Under the pieces are notes generated by a model. That model saw nothing but the letters and a program-made list of their open reading frames with translations, was not told where the DNA came from and did no database searches. The translations under genes and the position numbers were made by a program. This document shows, piece by piece, positions 5,106 through 62,260 of a stretch of DNA of 64,000 nucleotides (position 1 is its first letter; the number at the start of each line of letters is the position of its first letter). The stretch lies in assembly GCF_053078305.1 (NCBI RefSeq), contig NZ_CP166879.1; one strand, given 5' to 3'.

Positions 5106-5107
5106 TC

Positions 5108-21601: not shown

Positions 21602-21620
21602 GCAAATCATTATCATTACG
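21602..21620. promoter_or_regulatory. Fur-box-like sequence upstream of TonB-dependent receptor
   Basis: GCAAATCATTATCATTACG contains AATCATTATC, matching half of the Fur consensus GATAATGATAATCATTATC; about 20 bp upstream of the ATG. Confidence 0.55.
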
Positions 21621-21640
21621 ATTTTAGAAAAGGGAAATTT

Positions 21641-23689
21641 ATGAAGAACAAATATATCATTGCTCCGGGCATTGCCGTGATATGTTCTGCAGTCATATCA
21701 TCAGGTTATGCCAGTTCTGATAAAAAAGAAGATACGCTTGTTGTTACTGCCTCCGGCTTCACTCAGCAACTCAGAAATGCACCGGCCAGTGTTTCAGTCA
21801 TTACTTCAGAGCAACTGCAAAAAAAACCGGTTTCAGACCTGGTCGATGCGGTAAAAGATGTTGAAGGGATTAGTATCACCGGTGGGAATGAAAAACCGGA
21901 TATCAGTATACGTGGGTTAAGTGGCGATTATACATTGATTCTGGTCGATGGACGACGTCAGAGTGGTCGGGAATCCAGACCAAACGGCAGCGGCGGTTTT
22001 GAAGCCGGATTTATCCCTCCTGTGGAAGCAATTGAGCGTATTGAAGTTATACGTGGCCCTATGTCTTCCCTGTATGGTTCCGATGCTATCGGAGGAGTTA
22101 TTAATATCATAACCAAACCTGTTAATAACCAGACATGGGATGGCGTACTTGGGCTTGGGGGAATTATTCAGGAACATGGGAAATTTGGTAACTCAACCAC
22201 GAATGACTTCTACCTGTCAGGCCCATTGGTTAAGGATAAACTTGGTCTTCAGTTATATGGAGGAATGAACTATCGCAAGGAAGATAGTATCTCTCAGGGA
22301 ACACCAGCAAAAGATAATAAGAATATAACGGCAACACTCCAGTTTACTCCGACTGAAAGCCAGAAGTTTGTTTTTGAATACGGAAAAAATAACCAGGAAC
22401 ATACATTAACACCTGGTGATTCTCTTGATGCCTGGACTATGCGGGGAAATCTTAAACAACCAAACAGTAAAAGAGAAACACATAACTCACGTAGTCACTG
22501 GGTAGCAGCATGGAATGCCCAGGGCGAAATACTGCATCCTGAAATTGCTGTTTATCAGGAGAAAGTTATTCGTGAGGTTAAATCTGGTAAAAAAGATAAA
22601 TATAATCATTGGGATCTTAATTACGAGTCAAGAAAACCGGAAATAACCAACACGATCATAGATGCAAAAGTGACGGCATTTCTGCCGGAAAATGTGCTGA
22701 CCATCGGAGGTCAATTTCAGCATGCAGAACTCCGTGATGACTCAGCCACAGGTAAAAAAACGACAGAAACACAGTCTGTTTCAGTTAAACAGAAAGCTGT
22801 TTTTATAGAAAATGAATATGCTGCAACGGATTCTCTCGCCCTGACTGGAGGGCTGCGCCTCGATAACCATGAAATCTATGGCAGTTACTGGAATCCAAGA
22901 TTGTATGCTGTTTATAACCTGACCGATAATCTCACTCTCAAAGGAGGGATCGCAAAAGCATTTCGGGCCCCTTCGATTCGTGAGGTCAGTCCTGGATTTG
23001 GAACACTGACGCAGGGTGGTGCCTCTATTATGTATGGAAACAGGGACCTGAAACCGGAGACCAGTGTAACCGAAGAGATCGGTATTATTTATAATAATGA
23101 CAGTGGTTTTTCAGCAAGCGCGACTCTGTTTAATACAGATTTTAAAAATAAGCTGACCAGTTACGATATAGGCACAAAAGATCCAGTCACTGGGCTAAAC
23201 ACTTTTATTTATGATAATGTGGGTGAGGCAAATATCAGAGGTGTGGAGCTTGCAACTCAGATTCCTGTGTATGATAAATGGCGTGTATCTGCAAACTATA
23301 CATTCACTGACTCCCGTCGAGAAAGCGATGACGAAAGTCTCAATGGCAAGTCGCTGAAAGGGGAACCTCTGGAAAGAACTCCCAGACATGCAGCCAATGC
23401 AAAACTGGAATGGGATTACACTCAGGATATTACATTTTATTCATCTCTGAATTATACAGGAAAACAAATCTGGGCAGCACAAAGAAATGGTGCCAAGGTT
23501 CCCCGTGTTCGTAATGGATTCACTTCTATGGATATTGGTATGAATTACCAGTTCCTGCCAGGCACGCTGATTAATTTTGCCGTACTTAACGTCACAGACA
23601 GAAAGAGCGAAGATATCGATACCATTGATGGTAACTGGCAGGTCGATGAAGGACGTCGTTACTGGGCTAATGTAAGAATATCCTTCTGA
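21641..23689 (+). CDS. ireA: TonB-dependent outer-membrane siderophore receptor (IreA-like)
   Basis: 682 aa from ATG 21641; signal peptide, TonB-box-like DTLVVTA, plug motif IEVIRGPMSSLYGSDAIGGVINIITK, terminal aromatic ...RISF; size and sequence match my recollection of IreA (Iha not excluded). Confidence 0.75.
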   Translation: MKNKYIIAPGIAVICSAVISSGYASSDKKEDTLVVTASGFTQQLRNAPASVSVITSEQLQKKPVSDLVDAVKDVEGISITGGNEKPDISIRGLSGDYTLILVDGRRQSGRESRPNGSGGFEAGFIPPVEAIERIEVIRGPMSSLYGSDAIGGVINIITKPVNNQTWDGVLGLGGIIQEHGKFGNSTTNDFYLSGPLVKDKLGLQLYGGMNYRKEDSISQGTPAKDNKNITATLQFTPTESQKFVFEYGKNNQEHTLTPGDSLDAWTMRGNLKQPNSKRETHNSRSHWVAAWNAQGEILHPEIAVYQEKVIREVKSGKKDKYNHWDLNYESRKPEITNTIIDAKVTAFLPENVLTIGGQFQHAELRDDSATGKKTTETQSVSVKQKAVFIENEYAATDSLALTGGLRLDNHEIYGSYWNPRLYAVYNLTDNLTLKGGIAKAFRAPSIREVSPGFGTLTQGGASIMYGNRDLKPETSVTEEIGIIYNNDSGFSASATLFNTDFKNKLTSYDIGTKDPVTGLNTFIYDNVGEANIRGVELATQIPVYDKWRVSANYTFTDSRRESDDESLNGKSLKGEPLERTPRHAANAKLEWDYTQDITFYSSLNYTGKQIWAAQRNGAKVPRVRNGFTSMDIGMNYQFLPGTLINFAVLNVTDRKSEDIDTIDGNWQVDEGRRYWANVRISF

Positions 23690-24362
23690 GAGAATATAGA
23701 TAACCTGAGGCCGTGCGCCTCAGGTACCAGTATAGTAATCAGTAACGTCAGCTTCCAGGTTGTAATGCTTTTAATTTTGATAAAAATAAACTTAATAAAT
23801 TACATTTGTTAAATATTGATAATTTTAATTTGGTTTTATTACTCCAGTTATACTCACACTCTATCTTTACACAATTCATCACCATTACACCTCCATAGCC
23901 TGTTGATTTAAAAGATTTAATTTCCTGTGAAACAATCAGGCCTGTATGAACCTGATTATACCACAGAATCTTTTAAGTTATTTAAATTTAACTCTCGGGC
24001 TTTTCTGTCAGTAAAATCAGAAAAATTGCAGGATTTCGTTTTTTTTGCTGCGAAGTGAAATGTATCTCATTTTTACTGCCTTCGCCAGTGCGTCAGGCAA
24101 TGGCAGGTAGTGTACCTGCATTCTGCTGTAACGCGTAATGTCGGGTAGTTTACTTAAACTTAATATGTTTTATGTTTGCATTATTATAAATCACTTTATT
24201 GCCTTTTGTCTGCTTTTTAATGGTTCCCGTTTTGTTCACTTCTGGCTTTATAAAAAATGGATGCTGAAGAAATGAAGGTAGTCCACCTTACATAATATTC
24301 ATGCATGATTTTTATGCTATTCCGACTGAGTGGAAGAAAATAAAGGAGAAAAGAGGGTATAT

Positions 24363-27300
24363 ATGAACCTCAGAAAAAAACATATCTGTATAGCCATATC
24401 ACTTGTTCTTAATCCGGCATCCATATCACAGGTCAGTGCTCAGGCAGATACAAATAAGTTAACTGTTGAAGTTGATGAAACCAGCCTTGGCCATGATGTC
24501 TATGGCGATGACTGGAAGAGCATTGAAATAGGTACAACGAAATTTACAGCAAAAGATGAATCAAAGGGAATTAATTTCGACCATAAATCACCGGTGGCTG
24601 AAGGACGTAACTCTATCGCGATTGGTACCAGTGCAGAGGCTGGAGGTGACATTAGCACGAAGGAAGGTTTGTACACAGGCGAGTCTATTGCGATAGGAGC
24701 GAAAACGAAAGCAACTAAAGAACAGTCAATTGCAATAGGTGGCGATACCAAAGCTACCGGATGGGGGGCTATTGTTATTGGTGGGGATGATTTAACTCCT
24801 TTGCATGGTAAGACTTATGGTCGGGAAAAAATAGAGAATGGCTATCTTGCATCGGAAGCGCAGGGGGATGGCAGTATTGCGCTGGGCAGCAGAACTTTTG
24901 CTAAAGGCGAATTGTCAGTATCGCTTGGTTCGGTGAGTTCTGCTGAGGGGATGGCCTCGAATGCAATTGGAGCCACGGCGGAAGCTAAAGGGGATATGGC
25001 GACTGCGGTTGGTTTTAATGCGCTGGCTAATGCCGGTAATGCTCTGGCCGTTGGTAGTCAGTCCTCTGCAAATAAAAACGATGCTCTTGCTGTTGGTTCA
25101 GAGGCAAATGCCGCTCAGAATGAAACGGTTGCCCTGGGGCATGGAGCAACCGTTACTGTCGCAAAGGGGAACGTGTCCATCGGCGCTGACTCCAGGGATA
25201 AGCAGGCACAAAAAGTAACAGAGGCTAAGGTCAGAACTAAAAGAGGCGCGGAAGTCACATATAGTGGCTTTGCCGGAAATAACGCAGCATCAGTAGTATC
25301 TGTTGGTGATGCGGGTAAAGAGCGTCAGATTGTTAACGTGGGGGCGGGTGCGATTTCTGACACAAGTACAGATGCCATTAACGGTAGTCAGTTATATGCG
25401 ATAGCGAAGACACTGAAAGATGACCTTGATGCCATTAATCCGACGTGGACGCTAAAGGATGATAAGGGAGGTTCTGCGACTATTAATGGTGGGAAGGATA
25501 ATAAGAATGGTAACACTTTAACTGTTAAAGGTGATGGAGATATTGCAGTTACTGTTAATGATAAAGGAATGACGATTGACGGAACAACGCTGAAAAATGA
25601 AATAAAAAATGATGCCATCAAAATTAAAGGTGGAGATGGTAAGACGCTGACGAAGAGTCTTGGTGACAATGTCGAAATCACTGGCAAAGGCCCAATAAAA
25701 ACCCAGGTGGCTGGAGATAAACTGGAGATTTCAGCAGAGACAGCTTCGTTGCCTGTAAATGGTGGTAACGGGAAGATTACAGTAAACAATGGTGATGGCG
25801 ATAAACTTGTTACTGCGAAAAACATTGCTGATGCCATAAACCAGTCTGGCTGGAAAATTAAAGCGGATAAAGATACCGGTGGTGTTATCGAGGGAAATGG
25901 TCAGGGAACAGAAACACTGATAAAACCCGGTGATATGGTTACGCTGAAAGCCGGTAAAAATCTCAGCGTGAAACAAAGTGGTGGTGATTTTACATTCTCT
26001 GTTATTGATACTCCGTCATTCAGCAGTGTTCAGCTGAATGGAAAAGGAAATAACGGAAGTGTAACGCTCTCATCCGAAGGTAATAAGCTGACATTGTCAG
26101 GCGGTAATGGTGCCGGACAAAATGGTGTTGTTATCAGTGGTGTGGCAAGTGGACTGGAAGGTAAGGAACTTTCGACGTTAACGAATACTGATAAAGAGAT
26201 GAAAAATGCCGCCAGTGTTGCAGACCTGAAAACGGCAATTGATGGTGTGTCCTCCAGTATGCAGGGTGCAGGTTTCGCACTGAAAGACTCTGATGATAAG
26301 GAAGTGAAACAGTCTCTTGGGCAGGCGATTAAAGTATCCGGGGACAGCAATATCACCACCACAGCCATCACCAATGGGGATAAGGGGTTAAAAATATCCC
26401 TGAATAATGACCTGAGCGTTGGGAGCAATAATACTCCCGGCAGCATCAAAGTTAACGGGGCTGATGGTAAGGAGGCTGTGAGTCTGAATGGTCAGGATGG
26501 CACGATTAAACTGACATCCTCGCCTGCTGCGGGTGGAAAGTCTGCGTCAGCAACCATTGCTGTTAATGCAGGCAAAGGTGGATTAACAGATGCTGCCGGT
26601 ACCACGAAGACACGTCTGACTTATACCCCGGATGGAAAATCACCGGCAGAAGAGCTGGCGACCATGAATGACGGTCTTTCTTTTGAGGGTGATGACGGAA
26701 AGGTTATTCATAAAAAACTGAATGAAAAACTGACCATCAAAGGTGGTGCAGAGAAGAATGCTGAAGTGACTGACGGCAATATCCGGGTTGATAATGATAA
26801 TGGCGGGCTTCTGGTGAGGATGACCAGAAACCTCCGTGATTTGGCCAGCGCGGTTTTTGGTACAGGTGGGCAGATAACAACAGTTAATGATAAAGGCATC
26901 ACAATCACAACACCTGCTGCGGGCGGTGGTCAGGGGAATACGGTTTCCCTTACCGGCTCCGGCCTGAATAACGGTGGAAATCAGATAACCAGTGTGGCCA
27001 GTGGTCTGAACGGCACTGCGCTTGCTGACGCCGGTGGAGATGTTCTGAATAATGCGGCCAATATCGGTGACCTGAAAAATGCTCTCCGTGACAGCAGTGC
27101 GGCACTGGTGAATACCGGCTTTGGTCTGCAGGCGGATGACGGAAGCAAGGTGAACACGTCTCTCGGGAAGCATATCACGGTTGGTGGTGACGGGCAGAAT
27201 ATCAGCACGACTGTTCAGAACGGGAGCCTGACGGTCAGACTCGCTGATAACATTCGCCTGGGAGATGACGGCAGTGTTTCTGTCGGCGGAACCCGGATGG

Positions 27301-28694
27301 ATAAAAACGGACTGACCATCAAGGATGGCCCGTCAGTGACTGTGAACGGTATTGATGCGGCTGGCCGGGTTATTTCCGGCGTGAAAGACGGGGTGAATGA
27401 CCAGGACGCCGTTAACGTTTCACAACTGAACCGTGAAATCAGTCAGGCAACGGCAGCAACGACCTGGGCACTGAAGACTGAATCCGGTGATGAGGCTGTT
27501 GCTGTTTCCTCCCAGACGGTTGAAGTCCGTCACGGACAGAATACCCGGGTTTCAGCCATCAGTAAGGATGATAAGGGAAATTACAGCTATGAGATTGATG
27601 TGACGGGGATTCCGGTGGAGTACACCGACAGCCAGGGGAACCCGCTTGTCAATATTGGTGGTCGTTTTTACACACAGACCGAAGATGCTGCGACCGGGAA
27701 ACTGACAATGACGCCGGCTGAGCCGGCCCGTGTCAGAATAAGCAGTGAGCAGCCTCTTGTTCTGACAAATGTGGCGGCCGGAAATGTGTCACCGGTATCC
27801 ACGGATGCGGTTAACGGGAGCCAGCTGGCATCTGCAGCCAGAATTGCTGGCGGTGATAATGTTGTCTGGAAAGACGGAAAAGCAGCGCTGGCTCCTGACA
27901 CCTTCAGTGAGCTGACAACTGCAGGTGGCGGTAAGACAACGGTGAATGGTGGTGTACATAAAACACCGGATAATGTGGCTGATGCAGTGAATATGCTGAA
28001 CCGTGAAGGCACGAAGTATTTTAAAGCTGCCTCTTCCGGTCAGGCAGCAAAAGCGGAAGGGCGTGACAGTATTGCTGTCGGACAGGGGGCCGTTTCCCGG
28101 GGACAAAACAGCATTGCCATGGGTAATGGTGCTGAAGTCACGCGTCAGGCTGCTGCCGGCTCTGTTGCAGTTGGCAGCCATGCCCGTGCTGGCCGCGCGA
28201 ATACCGGGACTTATGCCCTGAACGGTCAGGCTGTTGCGGGACGTACCGGAAGTGATACTGCGGTGGTTTCTTTTGGTCAGCCGGGACAGGAGCGTCAGCT
28301 GCAGTCAGTGGCACCGGGTGTGTTGTCTGCGAATTCAACGGATGCCGTCAATGGCAGTCAGTTGCATGCAACTAACCGTCAGGTTGCCGGAAATACACAG
28401 GCGATAAACACCCTCGGGAATAAATTCAGTCAGCTGAGCTACCGGGTGGAAGAGCTTAACCGGGATATCCGTGGTGTTGGTGCATCGGCTGCGGCCATGA
28501 GCGGGATACCTCAGGCCTATCTGCCGGGTAAAAGTCTGATGGGGCTGGGTGTCGGTGGATATGGTGGTGAAAGCGCCATTGCAATAGGGGTGTCCCGAAT
28601 CTCCGATAACGGTAAGATGATAATGAAACTGAATGCAGGTCAGAACACCCGGGGTAATTTCTCCGTCGGTGCCGGTGTGGGCTGGCAGTGGTAA
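24363..28694 (+). CDS. trimeric autotransporter adhesin (YadA-like anchor)
   Basis: 1443 aa from ATG 24363 (ORF opens at 24330); signal peptide; recurrent neck motifs DAVNGSQL / AINGSQLYA; YadA-type C-terminal anchor ending GVGWQW. Confidence 0.85.
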   Translation: MNLRKKHICIAISLVLNPASISQVSAQADTNKLTVEVDETSLGHDVYGDDWKSIEIGTTKFTAKDESKGINFDHKSPVAEGRNSIAIGTSAEAGGDISTKEGLYTGESIAIGAKTKATKEQSIAIGGDTKATGWGAIVIGGDDLTPLHGKTYGREKIENGYLASEAQGDGSIALGSRTFAKGELSVSLGSVSSAEGMASNAIGATAEAKGDMATAVGFNALANAGNALAVGSQSSANKNDALAVGSEANAAQNETVALGHGATVTVAKGNVSIGADSRDKQAQKVTEAKVRTKRGAEVTYSGFAGNNAASVVSVGDAGKERQIVNVGAGAISDTSTDAINGSQLYAIAKTLKDDLDAINPTWTLKDDKGGSATINGGKDNKNGNTLTVKGDGDIAVTVNDKGMTIDGTTLKNEIKNDAIKIKGGDGKTLTKSLGDNVEITGKGPIKTQVAGDKLEISAETASLPVNGGNGKITVNNGDGDKLVTAKNIADAINQSGWKIKADKDTGGVIEGNGQGTETLIKPGDMVTLKAGKNLSVKQSGGDFTFSVIDTPSFSSVQLNGKGNNGSVTLSSEGNKLTLSGGNGAGQNGVVISGVASGLEGKELSTLTNTDKEMKNAASVADLKTAIDGVSSSMQGAGFALKDSDDKEVKQSLGQAIKVSGDSNITTTAITNGDKGLKISLNNDLSVGSNNTPGSIKVNGADGKEAVSLNGQDGTIKLTSSPAAGGKSASATIAVNAGKGGLTDAAGTTKTRLTYTPDGKSPAEELATMNDGLSFEGDDGKVIHKKLNEKLTIKGGAEKNAEVTDGNIRVDNDNGGLLVRMTRNLRDLASAVFGTGGQITTVNDKGITITTPAAGGGQGNTVSLTGSGLNNGGNQITSVASGLNGTALADAGGDVLNNAANIGDLKNALRDSSAALVNTGFGLQADDGSKVNTSLGKHITVGGDGQNISTTVQNGSLTVRLADNIRLGDDGSVSVGGTRMDKNGLTIKDGPSVTVNGIDAAGRVISGVKDGVNDQDAVNVSQLNREISQATAATTWALKTESGDEAVAVSSQTVEVRHGQNTRVSAISKDDKGNYSYEIDVTGIPVEYTDSQGNPLVNIGGRFYTQTEDAATGKLTMTPAEPARVRISSEQPLVLTNVAAGNVSPVSTDAVNGSQLASAARIAGGDNVVWKDGKAALAPDTFSELTTAGGGKTTVNGGVHKTPDNVADAVNMLNREGTKYFKAASSGQAAKAEGRDSIAVGQGAVSRGQNSIAMGNGAEVTRQAAAGSVAVGSHARAGRANTGTYALNGQAVAGRTGSDTAVVSFGQPGQERQLQSVAPGVLSANSTDAVNGSQLHATNRQVAGNTQAINTLGNKFSQLSYRVEELNRDIRGVGASAAAMSGIPQAYLPGKSLMGLGVGGYGGESAIAIGVSRISDNGKMIMKLNAGQNTRGNFSVGAGVGWQW

Positions 28695-36455: not shown

Positions 36456-37514
36456 ATGAACAAAAAAATTTGGTTTATGGAAGGTTTGTCCTCTCAGAGA
36501 GATATTATTCAGGGGGTTAAATTATTTGCACAAAAAAATAATTTTGCCATTACCGTTTTTGCCTCCCACCGTAACGAAAGAAATGAAATCCTTTCCGTTG
36601 CCGATTATTCTTTGACTGAACCTGAAGATCCTCAAAAACGTCTTCAGTTTATTCAGGAAACCATTCAGACCTACGGCATCCACCATATTCATACTGGTCG
36701 TAACAACCAGTGGTTTGAAGAACACCGAACCGCCATTGAATCGACCGGTGCCACCCTTACTACCGGTGCAACGGGCATCGACTGGTTAACTCTGGCTGAC
36801 GAAAAAGTTACTTTTGCTCAGTTTATGGAGCAAAAGGGGCTCCCGGTCGTACCATCCTGGCGGGTGAATACGCTGGCAGAATTAAAGACACGCCTCGCGG
36901 CTCCGCCGTTCACTGACAGTCCGGTATGCGTGAAGCCGGTGACGGGTATCTACGGCATGGGATTCTGGCGCTTTGATGACAGTGCTTTGCCTATGGCCGT
37001 CTTTAATCACCCCGAACATCGTCTGGTCAGCCCGCAACTGTATATTGCTGCAGCGTCGGCTTCTGAGTCGTTTAAACCCCTTGTTTTGATGCCGTACCTG
37101 CCTGGCCCGGAATTTTCCGTCGATATCCTCGCGGATAAGGGCGAAATACTCGCAGCCGTGGGACGCCGTAAGGAAGGGGCTATCCAGTATCTGGTAAACC
37201 AAGGAAGCGCCTGGGAACTGGCGTGTGACTGCGCCCGGGTTATGAAGGCCGACGGGCTGGTGAATGTTCAGACGCGAAACGATGTGAATGGCAACCCGGT
37301 GCTGCTTGAAACCAACATGCGTCCGTCAGGCGGGGTGGGTTATACCCTTCACAGCGGGGTTAACCTTCCCGGGTTGTTTGCTGCTTTTAAGCTCGGTCTG
37401 ATGTCTGAAGATGCGGTGATCCAGAGCGCCAGAAATACCTTTTCTCCGGTTGCAGTGAGATCCATCACAGATGTCATCGTTTACCCGGAATCACTCTCTA
37501 ACCTTCTGAATTAA
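36456..37514 (+). CDS. ATP-grasp enzyme of the ter-associated biosynthetic module
   Basis: 352 aa; ATP-grasp-like architecture; first gene of an overlapping operon divergent from terZ. Confidence 0.7.
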   Translation: MNKKIWFMEGLSSQRDIIQGVKLFAQKNNFAITVFASHRNERNEILSVADYSLTEPEDPQKRLQFIQETIQTYGIHHIHTGRNNQWFEEHRTAIESTGATLTTGATGIDWLTLADEKVTFAQFMEQKGLPVVPSWRVNTLAELKTRLAAPPFTDSPVCVKPVTGIYGMGFWRFDDSALPMAVFNHPEHRLVSPQLYIAAASASESFKPLVLMPYLPGPEFSVDILADKGEILAAVGRRKEGAIQYLVNQGSAWELACDCARVMKADGLVNVQTRNDVNGNPVLLETNMRPSGGVGYTLHSGVNLPGLFAAFKLGLMSEDAVIQSARNTFSPVAVRSITDVIVYPESLSNLLN

Positions 37515-45792: not shown

Positions 45793-47358
45793 TTAATCCT
45801 TTAGTTCTAATCCCATCGGTTGTTCCAAAAAAATACGCTCATCCATAATTTTCAAAGACGGAGAAATTTCTGGAACAAACTCCATGCATTCAATAATATT
45901 TTTTTGCAAATCGACTCCGGGCGCTATTTCAATCAACTCAATGGATTTTTGAGAAAGTCTAAAAACAGCACGCTCTGTAATATAAAACACTTCTTTATTA
46001 TTTTTCCTTGCAGTATCTGACGAGAAAGTGATTTGTTGAACCTTCTTAATGAATTTTTTTACACTCCCATCCTCTTTTATATGCAATTTCCCATTGCTGA
46101 CATAAATCTTATTTTTTCCAGCAGTGAAAGAACCGCAGAAATATACTTTTTTAGCATTTTGAGTTATGTTAATAAATCCTCCGCACCCTGCAATTTTTGT
46201 TCCAAATTTAGAAACATTTAAATCTCCTTTTTCATCTGTTTCAGCTAATCCAAGAAACGCTTGATCAAGCCCACCACCGTCATAGAAATCAAACATCTGA
46301 TCCTGAGTAATTATCGCCTGAGGGAACGAAGAAGCTCCAAATGACAGACCTCCAGCAGGCGTTCCTCCAATTGCACCTGGTTCAACAGTTGCGATAAGTT
46401 CGGAGGTAATCCCCTCTTCATCTGTTACTTCAGCTATAACTTCAGGTGCCCCTATGCCATAATTTACAACTGCATTTTTTTTCAGTTCCATTGCGGCTCG
46501 TCGAGCTATAATTTTTTTTATATCAAGAGGGCGTGTTTCTTTGTCTTTTACCTCTTTTACACCTTTCCCGACATAGCTGAAGTTCATATACTCCGCAAAA
46601 GTTTGCATATGATATTCATCTTCAGAAACAACAACAGCATCAACATAAATACCTGGAATTCTGACTTGTAAAGGATCTAATGTACCGTCACGTACTATTT
46701 GTTTTACCTGAACAATAACTTTCCCTCCATTATTATGGACTAACTGGGCTGCAGCTAGGTTTTCAAGAATCAAACATTCATCCTCCATTGTTATATTCCC
46801 ACTCTGATCAGATGTAGTACCTCTGAGGATTGCTATGTTAGCATCAATCTTCTTATAAAATAGGTTTTCCACACCATTAATTTCTGTGACGGACACAATA
46901 TCCTCTTGTGTTTTATCATTAATTTTCCCGCCCTCTACGCGGGGATCAACAAATGTACCTAAACCAACATGAGTTAATGTCCCTAACTTCCCAGCAGCAC
47001 AATCTCGGAATAAATGGCAAATAACCCCTTGAGGAAGATTATAACCCGTAATTTTTCCCTCATTAGCTAACTTCTGCAATTTAGGTATTAGTCCCCAATG
47101 CCCGCCAATGGCACTAGTGACAAGCCCCTCATGAGATAAATGATTGACAGCTTTTGTTCCTGCATCCCCTTGACCAGCAGCAAAAATAATCTTGAGATTT
47201 CTTGGTTTTCCCGTTTTCAAAAAACGATCTTCTATGCCTTTTTCTATACACTCAGGAACAACTGCACCAATAAATCCGCCAAGAATAACACAATCATTAT
47301 CATGAATCATATTTACGGCATCTTCTAGTGTACATTGTTTTCTTGAATAAATAGACAT
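45793..47358 (-). CDS. acyl-CoA:acetate/3-ketoacid CoA-transferase (YdiF / propionate-CoA-transferase-like)
   Basis: 521-aa fused family-I CoA-transferase. Confidence 0.75.
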   Translation of the reverse strand: MSIYSRKQCTLEDAVNMIHDNDCVILGGFIGAVVPECIEKGIEDRFLKTGKPRNLKIIFAAGQGDAGTKAVNHLSHEGLVTSAIGGHWGLIPKLQKLANEGKITGYNLPQGVICHLFRDCAAGKLGTLTHVGLGTFVDPRVEGGKINDKTQEDIVSVTEINGVENLFYKKIDANIAILRGTTSDQSGNITMEDECLILENLAAAQLVHNNGGKVIVQVKQIVRDGTLDPLQVRIPGIYVDAVVVSEDEYHMQTFAEYMNFSYVGKGVKEVKDKETRPLDIKKIIARRAAMELKKNAVVNYGIGAPEVIAEVTDEEGITSELIATVEPGAIGGTPAGGLSFGASSFPQAIITQDQMFDFYDGGGLDQAFLGLAETDEKGDLNVSKFGTKIAGCGGFINITQNAKKVYFCGSFTAGKNKIYVSNGKLHIKEDGSVKKFIKKVQQITFSSDTARKNNKEVFYITERAVFRLSQKSIELIEIAPGVDLQKNIIECMEFVPEISPSLKIMDERIFLEQPMGLELKD

Positions 47359-47370
47359 ATTAAACCTCTT

Positions 47371-48708
47371 TTAAATTAAAAATAAGAATGCATATACCAA
47401 CATGGAGAGAACCGCAAATGCGGGAAACACACAAGTAACAATAAAAAGCTCTTTATAACTTTGCTTATGAGATAAGCCACAAACTCCTAGCAATGTGATA
47501 ATAAAGCCAGAATGAGGAAGCGTATCCAGCGTTGATGCACTAAAAACAATAATACGATGCATTAAACCTGGCGAAATATTCTGAGCTTGAGATAGTTCTA
47601 ATAAGTCTTGACCAAACGTTACCATAACTAATCCCACCCCTCCTGATGTTGAGCCCACTATTCCCGAAAGAATTGCTGTACCTATAATTGCAGGAAATAA
47701 TGCTACTCCAGGAATAGAAAAAATTGTTGTTTGAATAAGGGTAAACACAGGAAGGACTTTAATTACCCCACCATAACCAACTTGGGTAGATGTATTAAAT
47801 ATTGGTAAAAGAGACTCTGTAGCACCTAATGTAAGTGTTTTCTTTATATCACTTTTAAAAGTATTCCAGTAAATACAAATAGTGACGACAATAGCAATTG
47901 CTATGGAAATTAAAATTGCCCATGTTCCCTGAACACCTCCAAAATCTCTGTAATAATCAACCACTTCGTCAATCTGGAAAAAATATGTTAAAAATGCATT
48001 TCCTATAATAACTATCAGTATAGGTATAAATGCCAAAGTAACTTTTCCAGTCTCAAGATTACAGTCATTACTTACTTCTGTACCATATCCTTCTCCTTTT
48101 ATCTTAGCATTTTTAATTTTTGCAGACATATACCATACAGCGAACAATAACCATACAGCAGTGCCAACGATACCAATTACTAAACCTGAATATATGGTTG
48201 TATTGAACACAGGAATTGGTATTGCATTTATAAACTGGGCAGAACCAGGAGCCACATATGCTGGTAAGCAACCAGCACAGATAGCACTGGGTAATAATCT
48301 TTGAGGGTAATTACTTTTTATAAATATAGTTCTCGCAATAGGTAAAACTGCAAAAACCACAACAAAAACTGATATTCCTCCATAAGTTAATAAAAATGAT
48401 GCAATAATAACTGCAATAATAGCCCTCTTCTCACCCATTTTATCTGATATAAAATGGGCAATAGTTAATGCTGCACCACTTGCATTCATTAATGTTCCAA
48501 AAACAGCACCAACAAGAAATATAGGGAAGTATGCGGATATAAAACTCACAACCGAGTCCATAAATGGACCGGTCCATGAATAAAAAACAGGAATATCACT
48601 TCCCATAAAGACAGCCAGCATTGCCATCAAAGGGGATACTATCAGAACTGGAAAACCACGATATATGAGATATATTAGTAAAATAAGTGAAATTATCAAG
48701 CCTATCAT
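47371..48708 (-). CDS. GntP-family permease (putative short-chain carboxylate transporter)
   Basis: multi-pass membrane protein; ORF starts with TTG at 48759, ATG at 48708 (MIGLIISL) is likelier. Confidence 0.65.
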   Translation of the reverse strand: MIGLIISLILLIYLIYRGFPVLIVSPLMAMLAVFMGSDIPVFYSWTGPFMDSVVSFISAYFPIFLVGAVFGTLMNASGAALTIAHFISDKMGEKRAIIAVIIASFLLTYGGISVFVVVFAVLPIARTIFIKSNYPQRLLPSAICAGCLPAYVAPGSAQFINAIPIPVFNTTIYSGLVIGIVGTAVWLLFAVWYMSAKIKNAKIKGEGYGTEVSNDCNLETGKVTLAFIPILIVIIGNAFLTYFFQIDEVVDYYRDFGGVQGTWAILISIAIAIVVTICIYWNTFKSDIKKTLTLGATESLLPIFNTSTQVGYGGVIKVLPVFTLIQTTIFSIPGVALFPAIIGTAILSGIVGSTSGGVGLVMVTFGQDLLELSQAQNISPGLMHRIIVFSASTLDTLPHSGFIITLLGVCGLSHKQSYKELFIVTCVFPAFAVLSMLVYAFLFLI

Positions 48709-48777
48709 ATTATAACTCTCAATATTAATATTATTATTTAAGTATCTCCTGACAAGCAAGAGATACTTATTTCAAAG

Positions 48778-49986
48778 TTAACTGCACAATTCGATAATAA
48801 CAGCTGTCCCCATTCCTCCACCAATACAAAGGGAGGCGAGACCTCTTTTTTTATTATTTTTTATCATTTGATATAATAAAGAAACAACAATTCTTGAGCC
48901 AGATGCTCCCAAAGGATGGCCTAGAGCTATCGCCCCTCCATTAACATTTGTTCTTTGATTTAGCCAATCAATACTAACTGAGTGATTTTCAGAAATACTT
49001 TTTAAGACCCCTATTGCCTGAGCCGCAAACGCCTCGTTAATTTCAAAAAGATCAATATCTTTAATATCCAGTTTTGCTTTTTTTAATGCATTATCTATTG
49101 CTGGAACAGGCCCCAGCCCCATCACTGATGCATCAACGCCTCCTTGTCCAAATGAGCGAATTTCAGCCAAAGGTTGTAATTCCAATGTCTGAATTGCTTT
49201 CTCTGAAGTAAGAATAAGAGCTGCTGCACCATCGTTTATTCCAGATGAATTTCCTGCAGTCACGGTACCATTTTTTTCAAATGCTGGACGTAACACAGAA
49301 AGTTTCTCTAATGAGGAGTCTCTACGAGGATACTCATCTGTAGTAACTTCAATATTTCCTTTTCGGGTATGTACTTGTACCGGAGTAATTTCATCCTCAA
49401 ATTCTCCATTGTCAATGGCCTTTAAGGCTCTCTTCTGACTTTCAAGCGCAAATGTATCCTGTTCATATCTTGTAATATTGAACTGTCGGGCTATATTTTC
49501 TGCTGTAATCCCCATATGATAGTGATTAAAAGCATCAGTAAGACCATCTGTAATAAGAGAGTCACTCATTACCTGATTACCCATTCGTACACCACTTCTT
49601 GCATGATGATCAATCAAGTAAGGTGCCTGACTCATATTCTCTATGCCTGCCGTAACAACAACATCCATATCTCCACTACGAATTTTCATTGCAGCATCGA
49701 TAATAGTTTTCATACCACTACCACAAATCATATTCAAAGTCAGAGCCGGAGTTTTCCATGGTATACCGGCTTTAACAGCAGCTTGTCTACCTGGCCCCAT
49801 TCCTTGTCCAGCAGACAAAACATTCCCGACAATAACTTCATCAATACATTCAACGTTTATTCTGCTCTGTTTAATTGCTGCAGATATCGCAATTGCTCCA
49901 AGATCTGAAGCTGACACTGTTGATAACGAACCGCCAAAACATCCTATAGGCGTTCTTTTTGCCCCTGTAATATATACTTTTTCCAT
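48778..49986 (-). CDS. acetyl-CoA C-acetyltransferase (thiolase II)
   Basis: 402 aa; thiolase signatures (NMICGSGMK, GAIALGHPLGASG, CIGGGMG); AGGAGG RBS. Confidence 0.9.
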   Translation of the reverse strand: MEKVYITGAKRTPIGCFGGSLSTVSASDLGAIAISAAIKQSRINVECIDEVIVGNVLSAGQGMGPGRQAAVKAGIPWKTPALTLNMICGSGMKTIIDAAMKIRSGDMDVVVTAGIENMSQAPYLIDHHARSGVRMGNQVMSDSLITDGLTDAFNHYHMGITAENIARQFNITRYEQDTFALESQKRALKAIDNGEFEDEITPVQVHTRKGNIEVTTDEYPRRDSSLEKLSVLRPAFEKNGTVTAGNSSGINDGAAALILTSEKAIQTLELQPLAEIRSFGQGGVDASVMGLGPVPAIDNALKKAKLDIKDIDLFEINEAFAAQAIGVLKSISENHSVSIDWLNQRTNVNGGAIALGHPLGASGSRIVVSLLYQMIKNNKKRGLASLCIGGGMGTAVIIELCS

Positions 49987-52460: not shown

Positions 52461-53812
52461 TTTGCAACACTGATTTTGATTGATGTTGGCTTGCCTAAAT
52501 CTATCCGGCGTCATTATGGGCATGGATGCCCGCGCCTCGATGAGTTCCGCACCTGATGAGCCCAAAAAACCATCCGGCTTCAGTGAGCCATTTTCTTGCT
52601 GAGGCTTTTCATCAGGCCGATATGCCGTTCATGTCATCAATAATCAGTCTTCGCAAAACCAGATTGGGAACTACTTTAATTCATGATTAACCTGCCAGCC
52701 AGATTGGCGCCATCGTTACCTTTCGAACACAGTCTGCTGTGTTGTGATTGCCCACGCTATCCGGGCTAATTTGTTGGCCAGTGCGCAACATACTACGCTG
52801 GAGTGTTTTCTTGCCAACAACGCCCTGACCCAATCCGCCAACCTTCCTGACTGATTCTCGATTCTCTGAATAAAGGATCTTGCGCACTGAACGAGTAACC
52901 GTCGCAGATTTTTATCTCCACGTTTACTTATCCCTAAAAGTGTATTTTTACCACCTGTGCTGTACTGCCGGGGTACCAGACCGGTTGAAGCAGCAAAGTC
53001 CCGACTGCAGCTATATTGTTTACCGTCTCCCAGCTGCGATGACAGTACGCTGGCGGTTATCGGACCAATACCGGGTATTGTCTGAAGACGTTGTCCTACC
53101 TCATCACGACTCAGTTCCTGCTCCAGTGCGATTTCAAGCTCGGTGATCTGTCCGACAAGATAAATATAATGGGCATGTAAGCGCATCAGTAACTGCGCCA
53201 GATAGGGAGGAAGTTCGTTCTCTGCAAGTACTGTTGAAAGTCGTTTTACCACTGCGACTCCTGTCGGCATACTGATGCCAAATTCCAGCAAAAAAGCATG
53301 CATCTGATTGGTCGTTTTGACTTTATCACTGACCAATGATTCCCTGGCCCGGTGAAGCGCCCGCATGGCCTGCTGAGCTTCTGTTCGTGGTTGCACAAAT
53401 CGCATGGAGGGACGAGATGCCGCTTCGCATATGGCTTCTGCATCGACAAAATCGTTCTTGTTGCTCTTAACAAAAGGGCGAACGAACTGCGGAGAAATCA
53501 ATTTTGCTTCATGACCTAAATCAGCAATCCGGCGAGCCATAAAATGAGCTCCGGCGCAGGCTTCCATCACAACGGTAGACGAGGCACAGCCTGCCAGAAA
53601 CTCAATAAGTTTGGTACGGGTAAACTTTTTACGCAGCAATACCTTGCCTGACTTATCTTGGCAGTGAATGTGAAAGGAATGCTTGCCAAGATCTATACCA
53701 ATAAGCGTAATGTTTTGCATGATGGTCTTCTCCATGAAAGAAAAACACTCTACTAGGGTACAGCTCACAGGGTGGTGGGGACCATCTCATTAACGATGGA
53801 AAATTAACTCAT
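52455..53812 (-). mobile_element. IS110-family insertion sequence nested in IS2
   Basis: boundaries inferred from where the IS2 orfA sequence is split (GKKSM | TMEN); carries an intact transposase. Confidence 0.55.
52716..53720 (-). CDS. IS110-family transposase / recombinase
   Basis: 334 aa from ATG 53720 (GGAGAAG RBS); N-terminal LIGIDLGKHSF (RuvC-like DEDD motif) typical of IS110 family. Confidence 0.8.
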   Translation of the reverse strand: MQNITLIGIDLGKHSFHIHCQDKSGKVLLRKKFTRTKLIEFLAGCASSTVVMEACAGAHFMARRIADLGHEAKLISPQFVRPFVKSNKNDFVDAEAICEAASRPSMRFVQPRTEAQQAMRALHRARESLVSDKVKTTNQMHAFLLEFGISMPTGVAVVKRLSTVLAENELPPYLAQLLMRLHAHYIYLVGQITELEIALEQELSRDEVGQRLQTIPGIGPITASVLSSQLGDGKQYSCSRDFAASTGLVPRQYSTGGKNTLLGISKRGDKNLRRLLVQCARSFIQRIENQSGRLADWVRALLARKHSSVVCCALANKLARIAWAITTQQTVFER

Positions 53813-58535: not shown

Positions 58536-59510
58536 TTAAAAATTCGTACTGCCCAGGAATGTCTGTCCCCGTTTCTTGCAGCAACTGTAGGGCTGCCACA
58601 GGGCAAAGGCAGCATTACCTGTTTCAGCCGCTTCATGCTCTCCGTCAGGGAAGACTGCGCAGGACGTGGAGACTGAAGGCGTCAGTCTCTGCCATTTATG
58701 GTTCCGGGTACCCGTATTTTCCTCCACCGGATCCGGTGGCCAGTAACCGTCCTTCTTCCCTGCTTTCACCGCCTGATAGACATGTGGCTCACCGGTGCGG
58801 GTGATAATGTCAGCCACCCGCTGGGCCACCACCGCAGCAGCTTTATCATCATCTGTCTGGGTCACGAACCCGGAGCGGGGATACACATTGCCCCACATAT
58901 TCTCTTCTTCCTGGCTGCCTATTTCGCGTTTACCGGGGATCAGGGCCTCCGGGTACAGTGACTCCGGTAGTCCTGTACGCCAGGCAATACTGTCAAGCGT
59001 ACTGAGAAAATAAGGAACAAAAGGTGTCACCGGTGACTCACAGGAATATCCCGGCACCATCCCTCCGATAAGCGTGGTGGCCGGGTGCCCTGTTGCATCG
59101 GCATATTTAAAACGGATTGACGAACGACGTTCCCCCTGTACCTTCATGTCTGCGGGGTTCCCTCCTCCTGCTGACAGACCGGCAATACCTTTGCTTATGG
59201 CATTCTCCGGACCACCGGCTGTACTGCTGACCGCCGACATTTCACGCCAGGGATTTCCGCCAGGTGCGGTATAGGTGGAAACAACCACTTCCGGGATATA
59301 ATGGGAAACTTTCACTGATGTTCTGACCTTGCAACTGAATTTGGTGCAGAACAGCCAGTAGCAAATCCCGCTGACCCGCCAGCTGATACAGCTCTGTGAG
59401 GCTGCACTGGCCACTATCTGCGCGGTGTTCAGCGATGCCTCTGCCACCGGCAATACCGCCATACTTAACAGCAGAACACCGGCGCGATGACGTGATGTGC
59501 AGGAAATCAT
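58536..59510 (-). CDS. TraU-like conjugal-transfer protein
   Basis: 324 aa; signal peptide and Cys/Trp-rich segment (SGICYWLFC) reminiscent of TraU family; start overlaps upstream stop. Confidence 0.55.
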   Translation of the reverse strand: MISCTSRHRAGVLLLSMAVLPVAEASLNTAQIVASAASQSCISWRVSGICYWLFCTKFSCKVRTSVKVSHYIPEVVVSTYTAPGGNPWREMSAVSSTAGGPENAISKGIAGLSAGGGNPADMKVQGERRSSIRFKYADATGHPATTLIGGMVPGYSCESPVTPFVPYFLSTLDSIAWRTGLPESLYPEALIPGKREIGSQEEENMWGNVYPRSGFVTQTDDDKAAAVVAQRVADIITRTGEPHVYQAVKAGKKDGYWPPDPVEENTGTRNHKWQRLTPSVSTSCAVFPDGEHEAAETGNAAFALWQPYSCCKKRGQTFLGSTNF

Positions 59511-59902
59511 GGCTGCCCTCCCCCTGTACGCAGTTGTTCTGCCAGCACCACGTCTGTGGTTCCGTAGACCACTTCACTGTCATCAAAAACCACAGCCGGA
59601 TATTTTTTCAGTCCAAGGGACCAGGCATGTGCTAATGCACGGTAGTGTTCAGCAAGCCCTGCCTGAAACGACTGCCATTCAGGCGACTGCATCCGTTCCA
59701 TGACACGGGCAGATGCTTCTGCAGGCTCTGCGGGAAGTACCCCGAAAAATGTATCCTGCGTCTGCTCAGGAGCATCAAGCAGGACAACACGAACACCTGC
59801 TGGCGGGTTCATGGGGCGCTGGTGCGAATCGGTATAAATTGTTGTACCGGCAGATGCAGCCACCGGTAGTATCAGGAAGGAATACAGTAACAGTCGGTAC
59901 AT
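59507..59902 (-). CDS. ICE periplasmic protein (small secreted)
   Basis: 131 aa with signal peptide MYRLLLYSFLILPVAASA; within the T4SS array. Confidence 0.45.
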   Translation of the reverse strand: MYRLLLYSFLILPVAASAGTTIYTDSHQRPMNPPAGVRVVLLDAPEQTQDTFFGVLPAEPAEASARVMERMQSPEWQSFQAGLAEHYRALAHAWSLGLKKYPAVVFDDSEVVYGTTDVVLAEQLRTGGGQP

Positions 59903-60037
59903 GATGCGACTCCGTCAGACAACTGGTATCTGACAGCGTGCGCAAAGGCAAAGGGACAATCAGCAATAAATTCAAAACCGGATGATAAAAATTAAGCCTC
60001 TTCCTCTGAATAACGCACACTCTGCATCTGAATCAAA

Positions 60038-60757
60038 TTAATCCGGTTGCATCACAGGAAGCCACTGATTCGGGGTAATACCATAATAACGCCTGAACAC
60101 AGAAATAAAATAAGAAGCACTGGCATAGCCACACAACTCTGCCACCCGGGAAATACGGTTTTCTCCCGCAGACAAAAGCTGAACGGCATACTGCATTCTC
60201 TCTTTCAGAAGAAGCTCACTGAAGGTCGTCAGCTCTTCCTGAAGCTTTTTCTTCAGTAAACTCTCACTTATATATAACAGACTGGCCACTTCACCCAGCA
60301 TCCATGGACGGGACAAATCAGCACTGATAATATTCTTCACCCGGACAGTGCAGCTCCGGATACACCCCGTGAGCAGGGCATGGAAATCCGGATGTTCCTC
60401 AAACAGCGCCAGACTGGAAAAAGCCACCGCATCCCTGAAGTACACCGGCGATGGTTCATCTGTAATAAGTTGTCTGATCAGACATTCCGCCAGCACGGAC
60501 ATCTGTGGCCGGATCTGTAAAAGCAAAGACGACGGGCTGACTGCCATACCGGATAATGGCGTGCAGAACCGCAGATACCGCCTCACCACCTCCTCACTGA
60601 GGTCAGCGATAAGGAAACGTCCGGTATGAGCCTGAAAAGCAGGGCGCAGATGCCCGGCAATCAGAAGCATTGTGCCGGCAGGTATGACAGAGTTCCTGTG
60701 CTCCAGACAAAGCATTGTCTGTTTGAGAGCCATAATGACAGCGCAGGTACAGGGCAT
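60038..60757 (-). CDS. AraC-family transcriptional regulator
   Basis: C-terminal AraC-type HTH (GENRISRVAELCGYASASYFISVFRRYYGITPNQW). Confidence 0.8.
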   Translation of the reverse strand: MPCTCAVIMALKQTMLCLEHRNSVIPAGTMLLIAGHLRPAFQAHTGRFLIADLSEEVVRRYLRFCTPLSGMAVSPSSLLLQIRPQMSVLAECLIRQLITDEPSPVYFRDAVAFSSLALFEEHPDFHALLTGCIRSCTVRVKNIISADLSRPWMLGEVASLLYISESLLKKKLQEELTTFSELLLKERMQYAVQLLSAGENRISRVAELCGYASASYFISVFRRYYGITPNQWLPVMQPD

Positions 60758-60861
60758 CGGATATCCGGTAAATATGCTGATTTATTAAAGAGACAGACAT
60801 GCCCCGTATATAAAATTCCGTGTCACCGGGTGCTGAAAAAAACTGCACCGGCGGCGCTCTT

Positions 60862-61323
60862 TTACTCCTCCGTTACGGATATTTCAGCTCCCTTTTCAGG
60901 AGCGGTATCCTTCACATCACTGAGACCGGACTGAGTCGCTTCAGAGACCTCTGCCACCTTTCCGGCTGCCTGTGTTTTTACTTCCTCCACGGCATCCTTC
61001 ACCTCGCTGAGCCCGGACTGAGCCGCTTCAGAGACCTCTGCCATCTTTCCGGCTGCCTGTGTTTTCACTTCCTCCACGGCATCCTTCACCTCGCTGAGCC
61101 CGGACTGAGCCGCTTCAGAAACCTCTGCCACTTTTCCGGCAGCCTGCATTTTCACGTCCTCCGCGGCATCCTTCACATCACTGAGTTGAGTCTGCGCAGC
61201 TTCCTTTATATCTGCCGCCTTCTTACTTACATTCTCCTTTGTCGCATCATCACAGCCCGCAACCAGAAATGGTGCGGAAATACATAACGCCAGAATTGTT
61301 TTTTTCAGCATACAATCTCTCAT
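60862..61323 (-). CDS. lipoprotein with 29-residue tandem repeats
   Basis: signal peptide with lipobox LVAGC; about 3.4 copies of AAGK(V/M)AEVSEAAQSGLSEVKDAVEEVKTQ. Confidence 0.6.
   Translation of the reverse strand: MRDCMLKKTILALCISAPFLVAGCDDATKENVSKKAADIKEAAQTQLSDVKDAAEDVKMQAAGKVAEVSEAAQSGLSEVKDAVEEVKTQAAGKMAEVSEAAQSGLSEVKDAVEEVKTQAAGKVAEVSEATQSGLSDVKDTAPEKGAEISVTEE
60909..61200. repeat. 87-bp tandem repeat (~3.4 copies) inside the lipoprotein gene
   Basis: repeat starts read at 60909, 60996, 61083 and 61170 with few substitutions. Confidence 0.85.
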
Positions 61324-61694
61324 TATTAAGTGTTAACGCAGAACAGCTTATATTTCGTCCCCGGAAAATGGTCAAAAGACAACCAGAACATCACAGTGTC
61401 AGGGCACACTCCCGGTATATGCTTTTATAACCATAACATGCTGTTCCTGATATTACCGGAAATGTGCCCACTACATTTAACCTGTTTTCAGCACCGGGTC
61501 ATCGGCTGTGCTGTATTTTTTATTCCCGTCACAGAAACACACTATTACCGTTGATTTCATGACGAATAAAATGAATAAATTCTCCCGTGGTCTTTACCAC
61601 CATTATTATACCAATAACACCATTTACACAGATACACTCCGGGACTATCTGTTTTTGCCCCCTCCGACTCCACCGGAGGTTTTTATTTTCATAC

Positions 61695-61940
61695 TCAGGC
61701 CTTCACCACTTCACACCGGAAGTCCTCCACCCTGACGCCAATATACCGTCCCGGCTCTTTTGCGGGCGCAAACAGTTTTTCACATTCATCCTGAGTCATT
61801 TTTTCATCCTGGTAACGCAGCCACTGAACCGGCATATTGCCTGGTTTGATTATTGTCGCAGTTATTTTATATCGCTTTCCCATACTGGCTCTCATCTCAA
61901 CACCAAAATCACCGGCTGAGCCATCACTCCGGTAATGCAT
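61695..61940 (-). CDS. hypothetical protein
   Basis: 81-aa ORF with ATG start; no family recognised. Confidence 0.3.
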   Translation of the reverse strand: MHYRSDGSAGDFGVEMRASMGKRYKITATIIKPGNMPVQWLRYQDEKMTQDECEKLFAPAKEPGRYIGVRVEDFRCEVVKA

Positions 61941-62064
61941 GCGAAAAAAAGTGAGCGTCTCAGCAATGGCTCATGCGGTGATTCTGTACGGTACCCGCAC
62001 AAAATACGGACACCAACAGCGTCGCAGAATACAACGAAGGCATCAGGGCAGCACCTCTCTCCCG

Positions 62065-62259
62065 CTATTTTTCAGAGTTCTTTACCCTCCTCCTGACACG
62101 GGAGTACAACCCTGACAGCATCCGGGCCAGTACATTCGCAAGCACCCATGAAAACACAGCCACACCCACAGCTCCCGCCAGAAACAGCACAGGTTCACTG
62201 GCAATTTGATCTGACAGCGATGGATACAGTGGTCCCGGAAAATCGATATCGCTCCTCAT
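62065..62259 (-). CDS. small membrane protein of the T4SS operon
   Basis: ORF 62065..62307; ATG at 62259 with a GAGGGG RBS, 1 nt after the upstream stop; one hydrophobic helix. Confidence 0.4.
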   Translation of the reverse strand: MRSDIDFPGPLYPSLSDQIASEPVLFLAGAVGVAVFSWVLANVLARMLSGLYSRVRRRVKNSEK

Positions 62260-62260
62260 A

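Follow-up and report, generated by a model that had tools for sequence, protein, structure and literature searches.

In-frame copy-number alleles of an orphan repeat lipoprotein carried by an integrative conjugative element of Escherichia coli

In Mycoplasma, the lipoproteins Vlp and Vsp, both surface antigens, shift in length through the gain or loss of in-frame tandem repeats; such switching is frequent within a strain, and phase variation occurs as well. Braun's lipoprotein (Lpp), a heptad-based trimer of the outer membrane with serine at position +2, is joined to peptidoglycan through its C-terminal lysine, and its length is physically relevant. Ag473 (NMB1468) of Neisseria meningitidis is an alanine-rich lipoprotein, reported to be at the surface, that lacks aromatic residues and contains tandem repeats of 7 amino acids (PMC3402496). 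The present analysis concerns a small lipoprotein gene in a stretch of DNA of 64,000 nucleotides (NCBI RefSeq assembly GCF_053078305.1, contig NZ_CP166879.1), the whole of which is termed the window here. The gene lies within the type IV secretion system (T4SS) module of a TIGR037xx-type integrative conjugative element (ICE), and the number of 29-residue modules that it encodes varies between Escherichia coli strains in whole units. In the explanation that we consider best overall, and to which we give about an even chance, the product is an orphan modular lipoprotein that loses and gains modules in register and forms an amphipathic helix tethered to the inner membrane.

The sequence-only reading of this region placed the gene at 60862-61323 on the minus strand, where it described about 3.4 near-identical copies of an 87-bp unit behind a lipobox. 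The open reading frame (ORF) is real, but its start is most likely better placed at the ATG at 61311, because a Shine-Dalgarno-like GAGAG motif (61317-61321, minus strand) lies 5 nt upstream of this codon and because identical copies in other genomes are annotated by RefSeq as 450 bp encoding 149 amino acids (WP_044192205.1); the in-frame ATG at 61323 lacks a ribosome-binding site. The gene defined in this way (60862-61311, minus strand) encodes 149 amino acids plus a stop codon and has an identical 450-bp coding sequence in L001, one of the loci compared. Whichever of the two starts is used, the mature protein is unchanged. For the lipoprotein frame, a codon-usage score trained on the Pfam-supported genes within the window comes to +0.36 bits per codon; all five other frames score negative. 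Downstream, a consensus scan identified a terminator-like GC hairpin followed by a T-run (60835-60857, minus strand) that begins 5 nt past the stop codon and suggests a monocistronic gene. The lipobox, the ribosome-binding motif, the terminator-like hairpin, and the codon score together establish that the gene is real and that its product is a small orphan prolipoprotein. An antisense ORF of 155 amino acids that also runs through the repeat (60820-61287, plus strand) was rejected on account of a negative codon score and an absence of protein features; the lack of stops in that frame of the repeated unit is the sole reason that it is open.

Tandem Repeats Finder reports a single array in the window (60903-61185; period 87, 3.3 copies, 91% matches, no indels, score 454), in keeping with the roughly 3.4 copies that had been read from the letters. 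In its coding register, the array extends over 60904-61200 on the minus strand, as supported by this result, by the comparison of units, and by the allele series. Comparison of the units divides it into unit 1 (61114-61200), unit 2 (61027-61113), unit 3 (60940-61026), and a partial unit 4 (60904-60939), all on the same strand. The 29-residue units translate as AAQTQLSDVKDAAEDVKMQAAGKVAEVSE, AAQSGLSEVKDAVEEVKTQAAGKMAEVSE, and AAQSGLSEVKDAVEEVKTQAAGKVAEVSE, and the partial unit translates as ATQSGLSDVKD, after which comes the C-terminal tail TAPEKGAEISVTEE. Only 2 of 87 nucleotides separate unit 2 from unit 3, and the identity of the remaining 85 positions places the repeat beyond chance. Unit 1 differs from units 2 and 3 at 17 of 87 nucleotides (about 80% identity); the high nucleotide identity first claimed for all units thus applies to units 2 and 3 but not to unit 1. 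The codon changes that separate unit 1 from the other two comprise 6-7 synonymous and 6-7 non-synonymous changes, and this near equality points to some purifying selection.

A megablast search with positions 60700-61500 found the locus in 18 of 5426 complete E. coli genomes, always on the chromosome. Thirteen of the matches are full length, one is shorter by 86 bp, and four are shorter by 175 bp, giving classes of 3.3 units (13 genomes), 2.3 units (1), and 1.3 units (4); five of the genomes with full-length matches, as well as strains JNEC-KY174 and JNEC-KY176, were classed from the megablast matches rather than from a reading of the DNA. The 2.3-unit allele belongs to the O22:H8 strain 154. 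The 1.3-unit allele was read at the DNA level in STEC2018-553 and JNEC-KY202, and the matches in JNEC-KY174 and JNEC-KY176 have the same length and identity as those of the 1.3-unit genomes. Draft genomes contribute a second and a third 1.3-unit form as well as a 0.3-unit form, and the protein databases contain a class of 91 amino acids with three sequence variants (P0026, P0027, and P0028), a 120-residue form (P0030), and a 63-residue form with 0.3 units (P0044). The contigs that encode P0026 and P0044 have like neighbours (the conjugative ATPase, a 125-aa hypothetical protein, DUF1187, the lipoprotein, AraC, DUF1525, and TraU), and every allele sits in the same slot of the same ICE. Copy number therefore varies among strains that carry the element, rather than being identical in all homologues, and the in-frame change that had been anticipated is found as forms of 3.3, 2.3, 1.3, and 0.3 units separated by exact multiples of 87 bp.

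Each shorter allele was mapped onto the window allele to locate its junction; the differences in length are given relative to that allele and imply no direction of change (loss or gain). Relative to the window, allele L002 lacks 87 bp, with the junction GTGAAGGATGCCG at nucleotides 135-148 of the gene; alleles L003 and L011 lack 174 bp, with the junction GTGAAGGAT at nucleotides 222-231; alleles L019, L020, and L021 also lack 174 bp, with the junction CAGGC at nucleotides 165-170; and allele L022 lacks 261 bp, with the junction CTCAGTGATGTGAAGGAT at nucleotides 126-144. The homology windows of these four junctions are 13, 9, 5, and 18 nt, respectively, and the P0027 and P0028 proteins imply a fifth junction in the form of a unit 1/unit 3 hybrid. 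All length changes are exact multiples of 87 bp and in register, yet their junctions fall at differing points of the unit, which argues for at least four independent copy-number events. Assembly collapse was rejected as the origin of the short alleles, given that three classes occur in complete genomes, and k-mer assembly collapse was rejected for the P0026 allele, whose junction shares only 5 nt and is thus too short for it. Many database proteins marked as partial (clusters of P0002 and P0001) stop within the array at contig ends. Short-read assemblies therefore often break in the array, and because they do, multi-unit alleles are under-represented in draft genomes.

Among the 18 genomes, the flanks of the locus are 98.5-99.9% identical. 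All 16 copies with 3.3 units whose sequence was read are unchanged in unit number over flank divergences of 0.1-1.5%; they include L018, which has the most divergent flank (98.5%), and the paired ICE copies of three genomes, one of these copies being interrupted by IS600. Where both ICE copies of one genome were read, their unit numbers are equal. This stability within the 3.3-unit lineage suggests, on the available evidence, that the repeat is probably not hypermutable and that its variation is probably a stable population-level polymorphism rather than that of a contingency locus or fast switch. RecA-independent template switching or slippage is documented in E. coli for direct repeats shorter than 200 bp (PMC7145654), and changes of 87 bp would be consistent with such events.

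The signal peptide (MLKKTILALCISAPFLVAG; 61255-61311, minus strand), identified by translation and lipobox pattern matching, consists of a Lys-Lys n-region, a hydrophobic core, and the lipobox LVAG directly before Cys20. The lipobox pattern used was [LVI][ASTVI][GAS]C at about 15-25 residues from the start, and the match lies ahead of the repeats, as the sequence-only reading had stated. The prolipoprotein thus has the sequence features of a signal peptidase II substrate, namely a charged n-region, an h-region, a lipobox, and a cysteine at residue 20. The rule that relates aspartate at position +2 to membrane sorting is strong in Enterobacteriaceae. In E. coli, lipoproteins that follow this rule are retained in the inner membrane, and under it the codons for Cys+1, Asp+2, and Asp+3 (61246-61254, minus strand) would specify the acylation site and a signal for avoidance of the localization of lipoproteins (Lol) pathway (PMC6469965). 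The Lol-avoidance signal was taken as Asp at +2, with Asp, Glu, or Gln as the usual next residue and no adjacent basic residue, and the mature N-terminus, C-D-D-A-T, has this form. Because the mature protein begins with Cys-Asp-Asp, it is predicted to reside on the periplasmic face of the inner membrane and not at the cell surface.

The same N-terminus weakens a reading as a surface antigen, which was implied by an earlier proposal to examine the immunoreactivity of the protein, since Cys-Asp-Asp predicts inner-membrane retention. In its full form, this alternative holds that the lipoprotein is a surface-exposed, size-variable antigen like Ag473 or Mycoplasma Vlp that serves in antibody evasion or in the modulation of adhesion, and we regard it as decidedly improbable. 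The Ag473 family lipoprotein model NF047840 is the best NCBIfam match (E = 4.3e-7), Ag473 is likewise alanine-rich, free of aromatic residues, and tandemly repeated (PMC3402496), and copy number does vary. Against these resemblances, the match scores 30.7 bits, far under the Ag473 cut-off of 100, the N-terminus predicts retention in the inner membrane of E. coli, and all 16 of the 3.3-unit copies that were read are stable. Moreover, we know of no general route in E. coli for the export of lipoproteins of this kind to the surface.

Searches for relatives returned little. No profile in Pfam, NCBIfam, PADLOC, or PHROGs matched the lipoprotein above threshold. A word-indexed search of 5.8 billion proteins returned E. 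coli alleles of the gene only, and an exhaustive phmmer search of 1.84 billion representative proteins found no homologue outside E. coli; 21 other database matches are long repetitive proteins or proteins like those of the late embryogenesis abundant (LEA) type, which are alike by composition. Scores for the YtxH-like family PF12732 (21.3 bits vs. a gathering threshold of 37.5) and for the apolipoprotein A1/A4/E family PF01442 (20.6 bits vs. 90) fall below those of members. The best match among PDB sequences was SHERP, which was not significant (E = 0.064), and a Foldseek comparison of the model with the PDB returned nothing, as expected for a single helix. Megablast against plasmids gave no match, and the RefSeq protein accessions are mentioned in no paper within the literature searched. 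Judged by its sequence, the lipoprotein is a member of no described family.

AlphaFold2, run on the single sequence, predicts one unbroken helix over mature residues 3-117 (115 residues; mean predicted local distance difference test score, 87). Fourier analysis of hydrophobicity gives a peak at 3.625 residues, which is exactly 29/8, with a power of 158.6 vs. a maximum of 84.5 in 1000 shuffles. The composition is rich in Ala, Glu, Lys, and Val, as had been described from the letters, and the amphipathic character noted there proves to be strong. Each 29-residue module corresponds to 8 whole turns, or about 43 Å, and because a module is a whole number of turns, the apolar stripe stays in phase when modules are gained or lost. 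On a helical wheel, a stripe about 90 degrees wide is made up of V16, V27, V9, A20, A2, V13, V24, and L6. K23 edges it on one side, K17 and K10 edge it on the other, and Glu and Asp occupy the opposite face, an arrangement that reads as a class-A amphipathic pattern. The net charge is -14, the mature protein is without aromatic residues, Arg, or His, and the acidic C-terminal tail ends in SVTEE. The signal peptide, the lipobox, the Asp-Asp pair, and the 29/8 amphipathic phase are kept in all alleles.

Such a helix could also self-associate into a coiled-coil stalk, which would be fixed to the inner membrane, reach up to about 170 Å into the periplasm, and act as a spacer or scaffold with a length set in 8-turn steps. 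The single predicted helix of 115 residues, the continuous, narrow, near-straight stripe of Val, Ala, and Leu with its period of 3.625, and modules that comprise whole turns would all suit a stalk. However, a heptad (3.5) signal is absent, there is no C-terminal Lys or other feature for attachment to peptidoglycan or the outer membrane, and a ruler would hardly seem able to tolerate anything from 0.3 to 3.3 modules, so that we think a stalk quite unlikely. That the repeats function as DNA, as iterons or protein-binding sites, and that the ORF is incidental, is scarcely credible. The array does consist of tandem DNA repeats on a mobile element, and the antisense frame is open too; yet a signal peptide and lipobox lie directly upstream of the repeats, the amphipathic phase is exact, the codon score is positive in the lipoprotein frame only, typical iterons are much shorter than the 87-bp unit, and 0.3-unit alleles occur in otherwise intact ICEs.

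The neighbours of the lipoprotein gene are a TraU-like TIGR03756 gene (58536-59510), a DUF1525/TIGR03757 gene (59507-59902), a gene for a YdeO/GadX-like AraC-family regulator of the prophage family phrog_1450 (60038-60670, minus strand), a DUF1187 gene (61695-61883, minus strand), and a conjugative ATPase gene that begins at 62643. The AraC regulator, whose likeness to YdeO and GadX stays under the curated cut-offs, scores 128.9 bits against the YdeO model and matches phrog_1450 over its full length (2.2e-52); its gene always co-occurs with the lipoprotein gene. The lipoprotein gene, the AraC gene, and the ICE are found in the same 18 complete genomes, many of which are from cattle or bear the name of Shiga toxin-producing E. 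coli (STEC). The TraU-like segment has at least 98.9% identity in these 18 genomes and relatives of 75-77% identity in 15 others. The slot between the TIGR03757 gene and the genes for the 125-aa hypothetical protein and the ATPase (59903-62260) is empty in the related ICEs L012 and L014 and holds an iha pseudogene in the related ICE L013. Because the slot is empty or otherwise filled in relatives at 75-77% identity, this sequence comparison shows the AraC-lipoprotein-DUF1187 segment of about 2.3 kb, in which the DUF1187 gene is the third member, to be cargo in a hotspot and not part of the T4SS core.

TrbK of RP4 is an inner-membrane lipoprotein, and some exclusion factors belong to the class of small inner-membrane lipoproteins. 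A role as a conjugation accessory, for example as an ICE entry-exclusion lipoprotein functionally like TrbK, would accord with the position of the gene within the T4SS module and with a small product that is predicted to belong to this class. Such a role nevertheless appears very improbable. At least three complete genomes (NZ_AP042554.1, NZ_AP042687.1, and NZ_CM143728.1; among them the locus pairs L006/L016, L007/L015, and L009/L017) have two ICE copies at distant chromosomal sites, each with the gene, and a fourth, NZ_AP042574.1, has the same two-copy pattern as judged from match counts only; this coexistence argues against entry exclusion. Related ICEs with a full T4SS module are without the gene, and the profile libraries give no similarity to T4SS or exclusion families.

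The element carries further cargo elsewhere in the window: type III restriction-modification genes (Mod and Res), a TonB-dependent receptor, a trimeric autotransporter adhesin of 1454 amino acids, a ter-associated ATP-grasp gene, a cluster of thiolase, GntP-type permease, and coenzyme A (CoA)-transferase genes, and an IS110-family transposase. The other cargo intervals are 3069-8020, 21554-23689, 24330-28694, 36456-37514, 45793-49986, and 52716-53768. A "ter-type 4 integrating element" has been described (PMC8193136), which the element in the window resembles.

In the explanation that we prefer, an orphan modular lipoprotein with in-register loss and gain of modules, misalignment between units has repeatedly removed or added whole 29-residue modules and yielded proteins of 62, 91, 120, and 149 amino acids, probably either by RecA-independent template switching or slippage or by homologous exchange between ICE copies. 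Once lipidated at Cys20, the protein would be kept by Asp+2 and Asp+3 at the inner membrane, on its periplasmic face. In mature form it would be one long amphipathic helix, with a length set by the number of modules and with the phase of its stripe kept. Tethered in this manner, an LEA- or apolipoprotein-like helix may lie on or shield the surface of the inner membrane under envelope stress, and the adjacent YdeO/GadX-like AraC regulator possibly controls the lipoprotein gene. In favour of such a helix are the sub-threshold matches of LEA, YtxH, apolipoprotein, and phasin type and the presence of LEA-like proteins among the distant matches. A shielding role would tolerate variable length, and copy-number change would then be a mutational by-product and not a programmed switch. 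The functional part of this explanation, a tethered membrane-surface or hydrophilin-like helix in envelope stress, is offered tentatively and with appreciable doubt. We think it rather unlikely that the protein represents an unrecognised class of periplasmic protectant, in which a lipid-anchored LEA/apolipoprotein-like helix, built of 8-turn modules, equipped with its own AraC switch, and borne by an ICE of cattle-associated and Shiga toxin-producing E. coli, would promote survival when the cell meets desiccation, acid, or envelope stress; the number of modules would tune the extent of membrane coverage.

Several observations weigh against the tethered-helix explanation. No homologue supports any function, and the sub-threshold family matches may reflect composition only. 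The location assigned from Asp+2 is itself only a prediction. Single-sequence AlphaFold gives conditionally disordered LEA-type proteins and coiled coils a long helix too, and a helix that coats the membrane therefore looks the same in the model as one that associates with itself. Upstream of the lipoprotein gene, a sigma-70 promoter scan found no convincing site, the sole match overlapping the start codon. The AraC gene is truncated in 5 of the 22 copies examined. The A7 tract in codons 3-5 (61299-61305, minus strand) is A6 in one lineage, which breaks the ATG frame, whereupon the annotation pipeline calls an upstream TTG; A6 is present at the DNA level in L003, L011, and L022, and the corresponding N-terminus appears in the 21-member protein cluster P0001. 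This lineage also has 1.3- and 0.3-unit alleles. A6 may represent a null allele or act as an on/off site, and it looks lineage-fixed rather than switching. A G-tract near the 3' end (60888-60892, minus strand) has the sequence GGGAG in the window; most genomes have G5 at this place, four copies have G6 (tail ending EKGG), and one has G4 (tail ending EKGLKYP). The copies in which the tract was noted as variable are L002, L008, L009, L010, and L017, and its slippage alters just the last nine or so residues, in the unstructured C-terminal tail. Homopolymer sequencing errors may account for some of the tract variants; A6 and G6 are both seen repeatedly, in several independent assemblies. Finally, IS600 lies inside the lipoprotein gene in one of the two ICE copies of strain OkiPb01692 (L015, NZ_AP042554.1, locus 4590-5746).

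The frameshifted lineage, the tail variants, the IS600 insertion, and the truncated AraC genes fit weak or no selection. Together with the failure to find homologues outside E. coli and with related ICEs that have no lipoprotein gene, they favour a decaying orphan gene without current function, in which the repeats came from duplication in a cargo ORF and the later changes are neutral erosion. We consider decay unlikely. The signal peptide, lipobox, Asp-Asp pair, and 29/8 phase are intact in all alleles, the similar numbers of synonymous and non-synonymous changes between unit 1 and units 2 and 3 suggest some purifying selection, and the G-tract variants touch the unstructured tail only.

The locus provides a clean natural case in E. 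coli of module gain and loss, in frame and with several independent junctions, in an envelope protein, and its allele series is usable as a typing marker for the ICE lineage. If the protein is envelope-protective, it would bring stress tolerance as further cargo to an element of cattle-associated and Shiga toxin-producing strains that already has ter genes, an adhesin, and a receptor; if it is without function, it would exemplify how ICE cargo hotspots gather and erode orphan genes. The finding is modest, as repeat-length polymorphism in a small hypothetical lipoprotein is unsurprising to a specialist. The protein is an uncharacterised repeat-containing lipoprotein of an already known sort, with copy-number polymorphism.

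Among described systems, Lpp is likewise a small E. coli periplasmic lipoprotein that is all helical, as is predicted here, but the two are not homologous, and the period of 3.625, Asp at +2, and an acidic tail without a C-terminal Lys set the ICE-borne protein apart from the Lpp type. As in the Mycoplasma Vlp and Vsp proteins, length varies by in-frame repeat units; unlike them, the ICE-borne protein keeps its copy number within lineages, is predicted to be periplasmic, and is unrelated in sequence. The hydrophilic helical repeats, the narrow apolar stripe, the boundary lysines, and the acidic back face recall LEA group 3 proteins, YtxH, and the exchangeable apolipoproteins, a likeness that extends to a periodicity of about 3.6-3.67 and to weak profile matches. 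In contrast to LEA proteins and apolipoproteins, the unit has 29 residues (8 turns) rather than 11 or 22, no prolines punctuate it, and the chain is predicted to be lipid-anchored and periplasmic; with apolipoprotein A1/A4/E, the class-A charge distribution is the only common feature. Like Ag473 of Neisseria meningitidis, the protein is a small lipoprotein rich in Ala, Glu, Lys, and Val, free of aromatic residues, built from in-frame tandem repeats, and without an assigned function. It differs from Ag473 in its repeats of 29 rather than 7 amino acids, in an inner-membrane retention signal vs. a reported surface location, and in its occurrence only on an ICE of E. coli.

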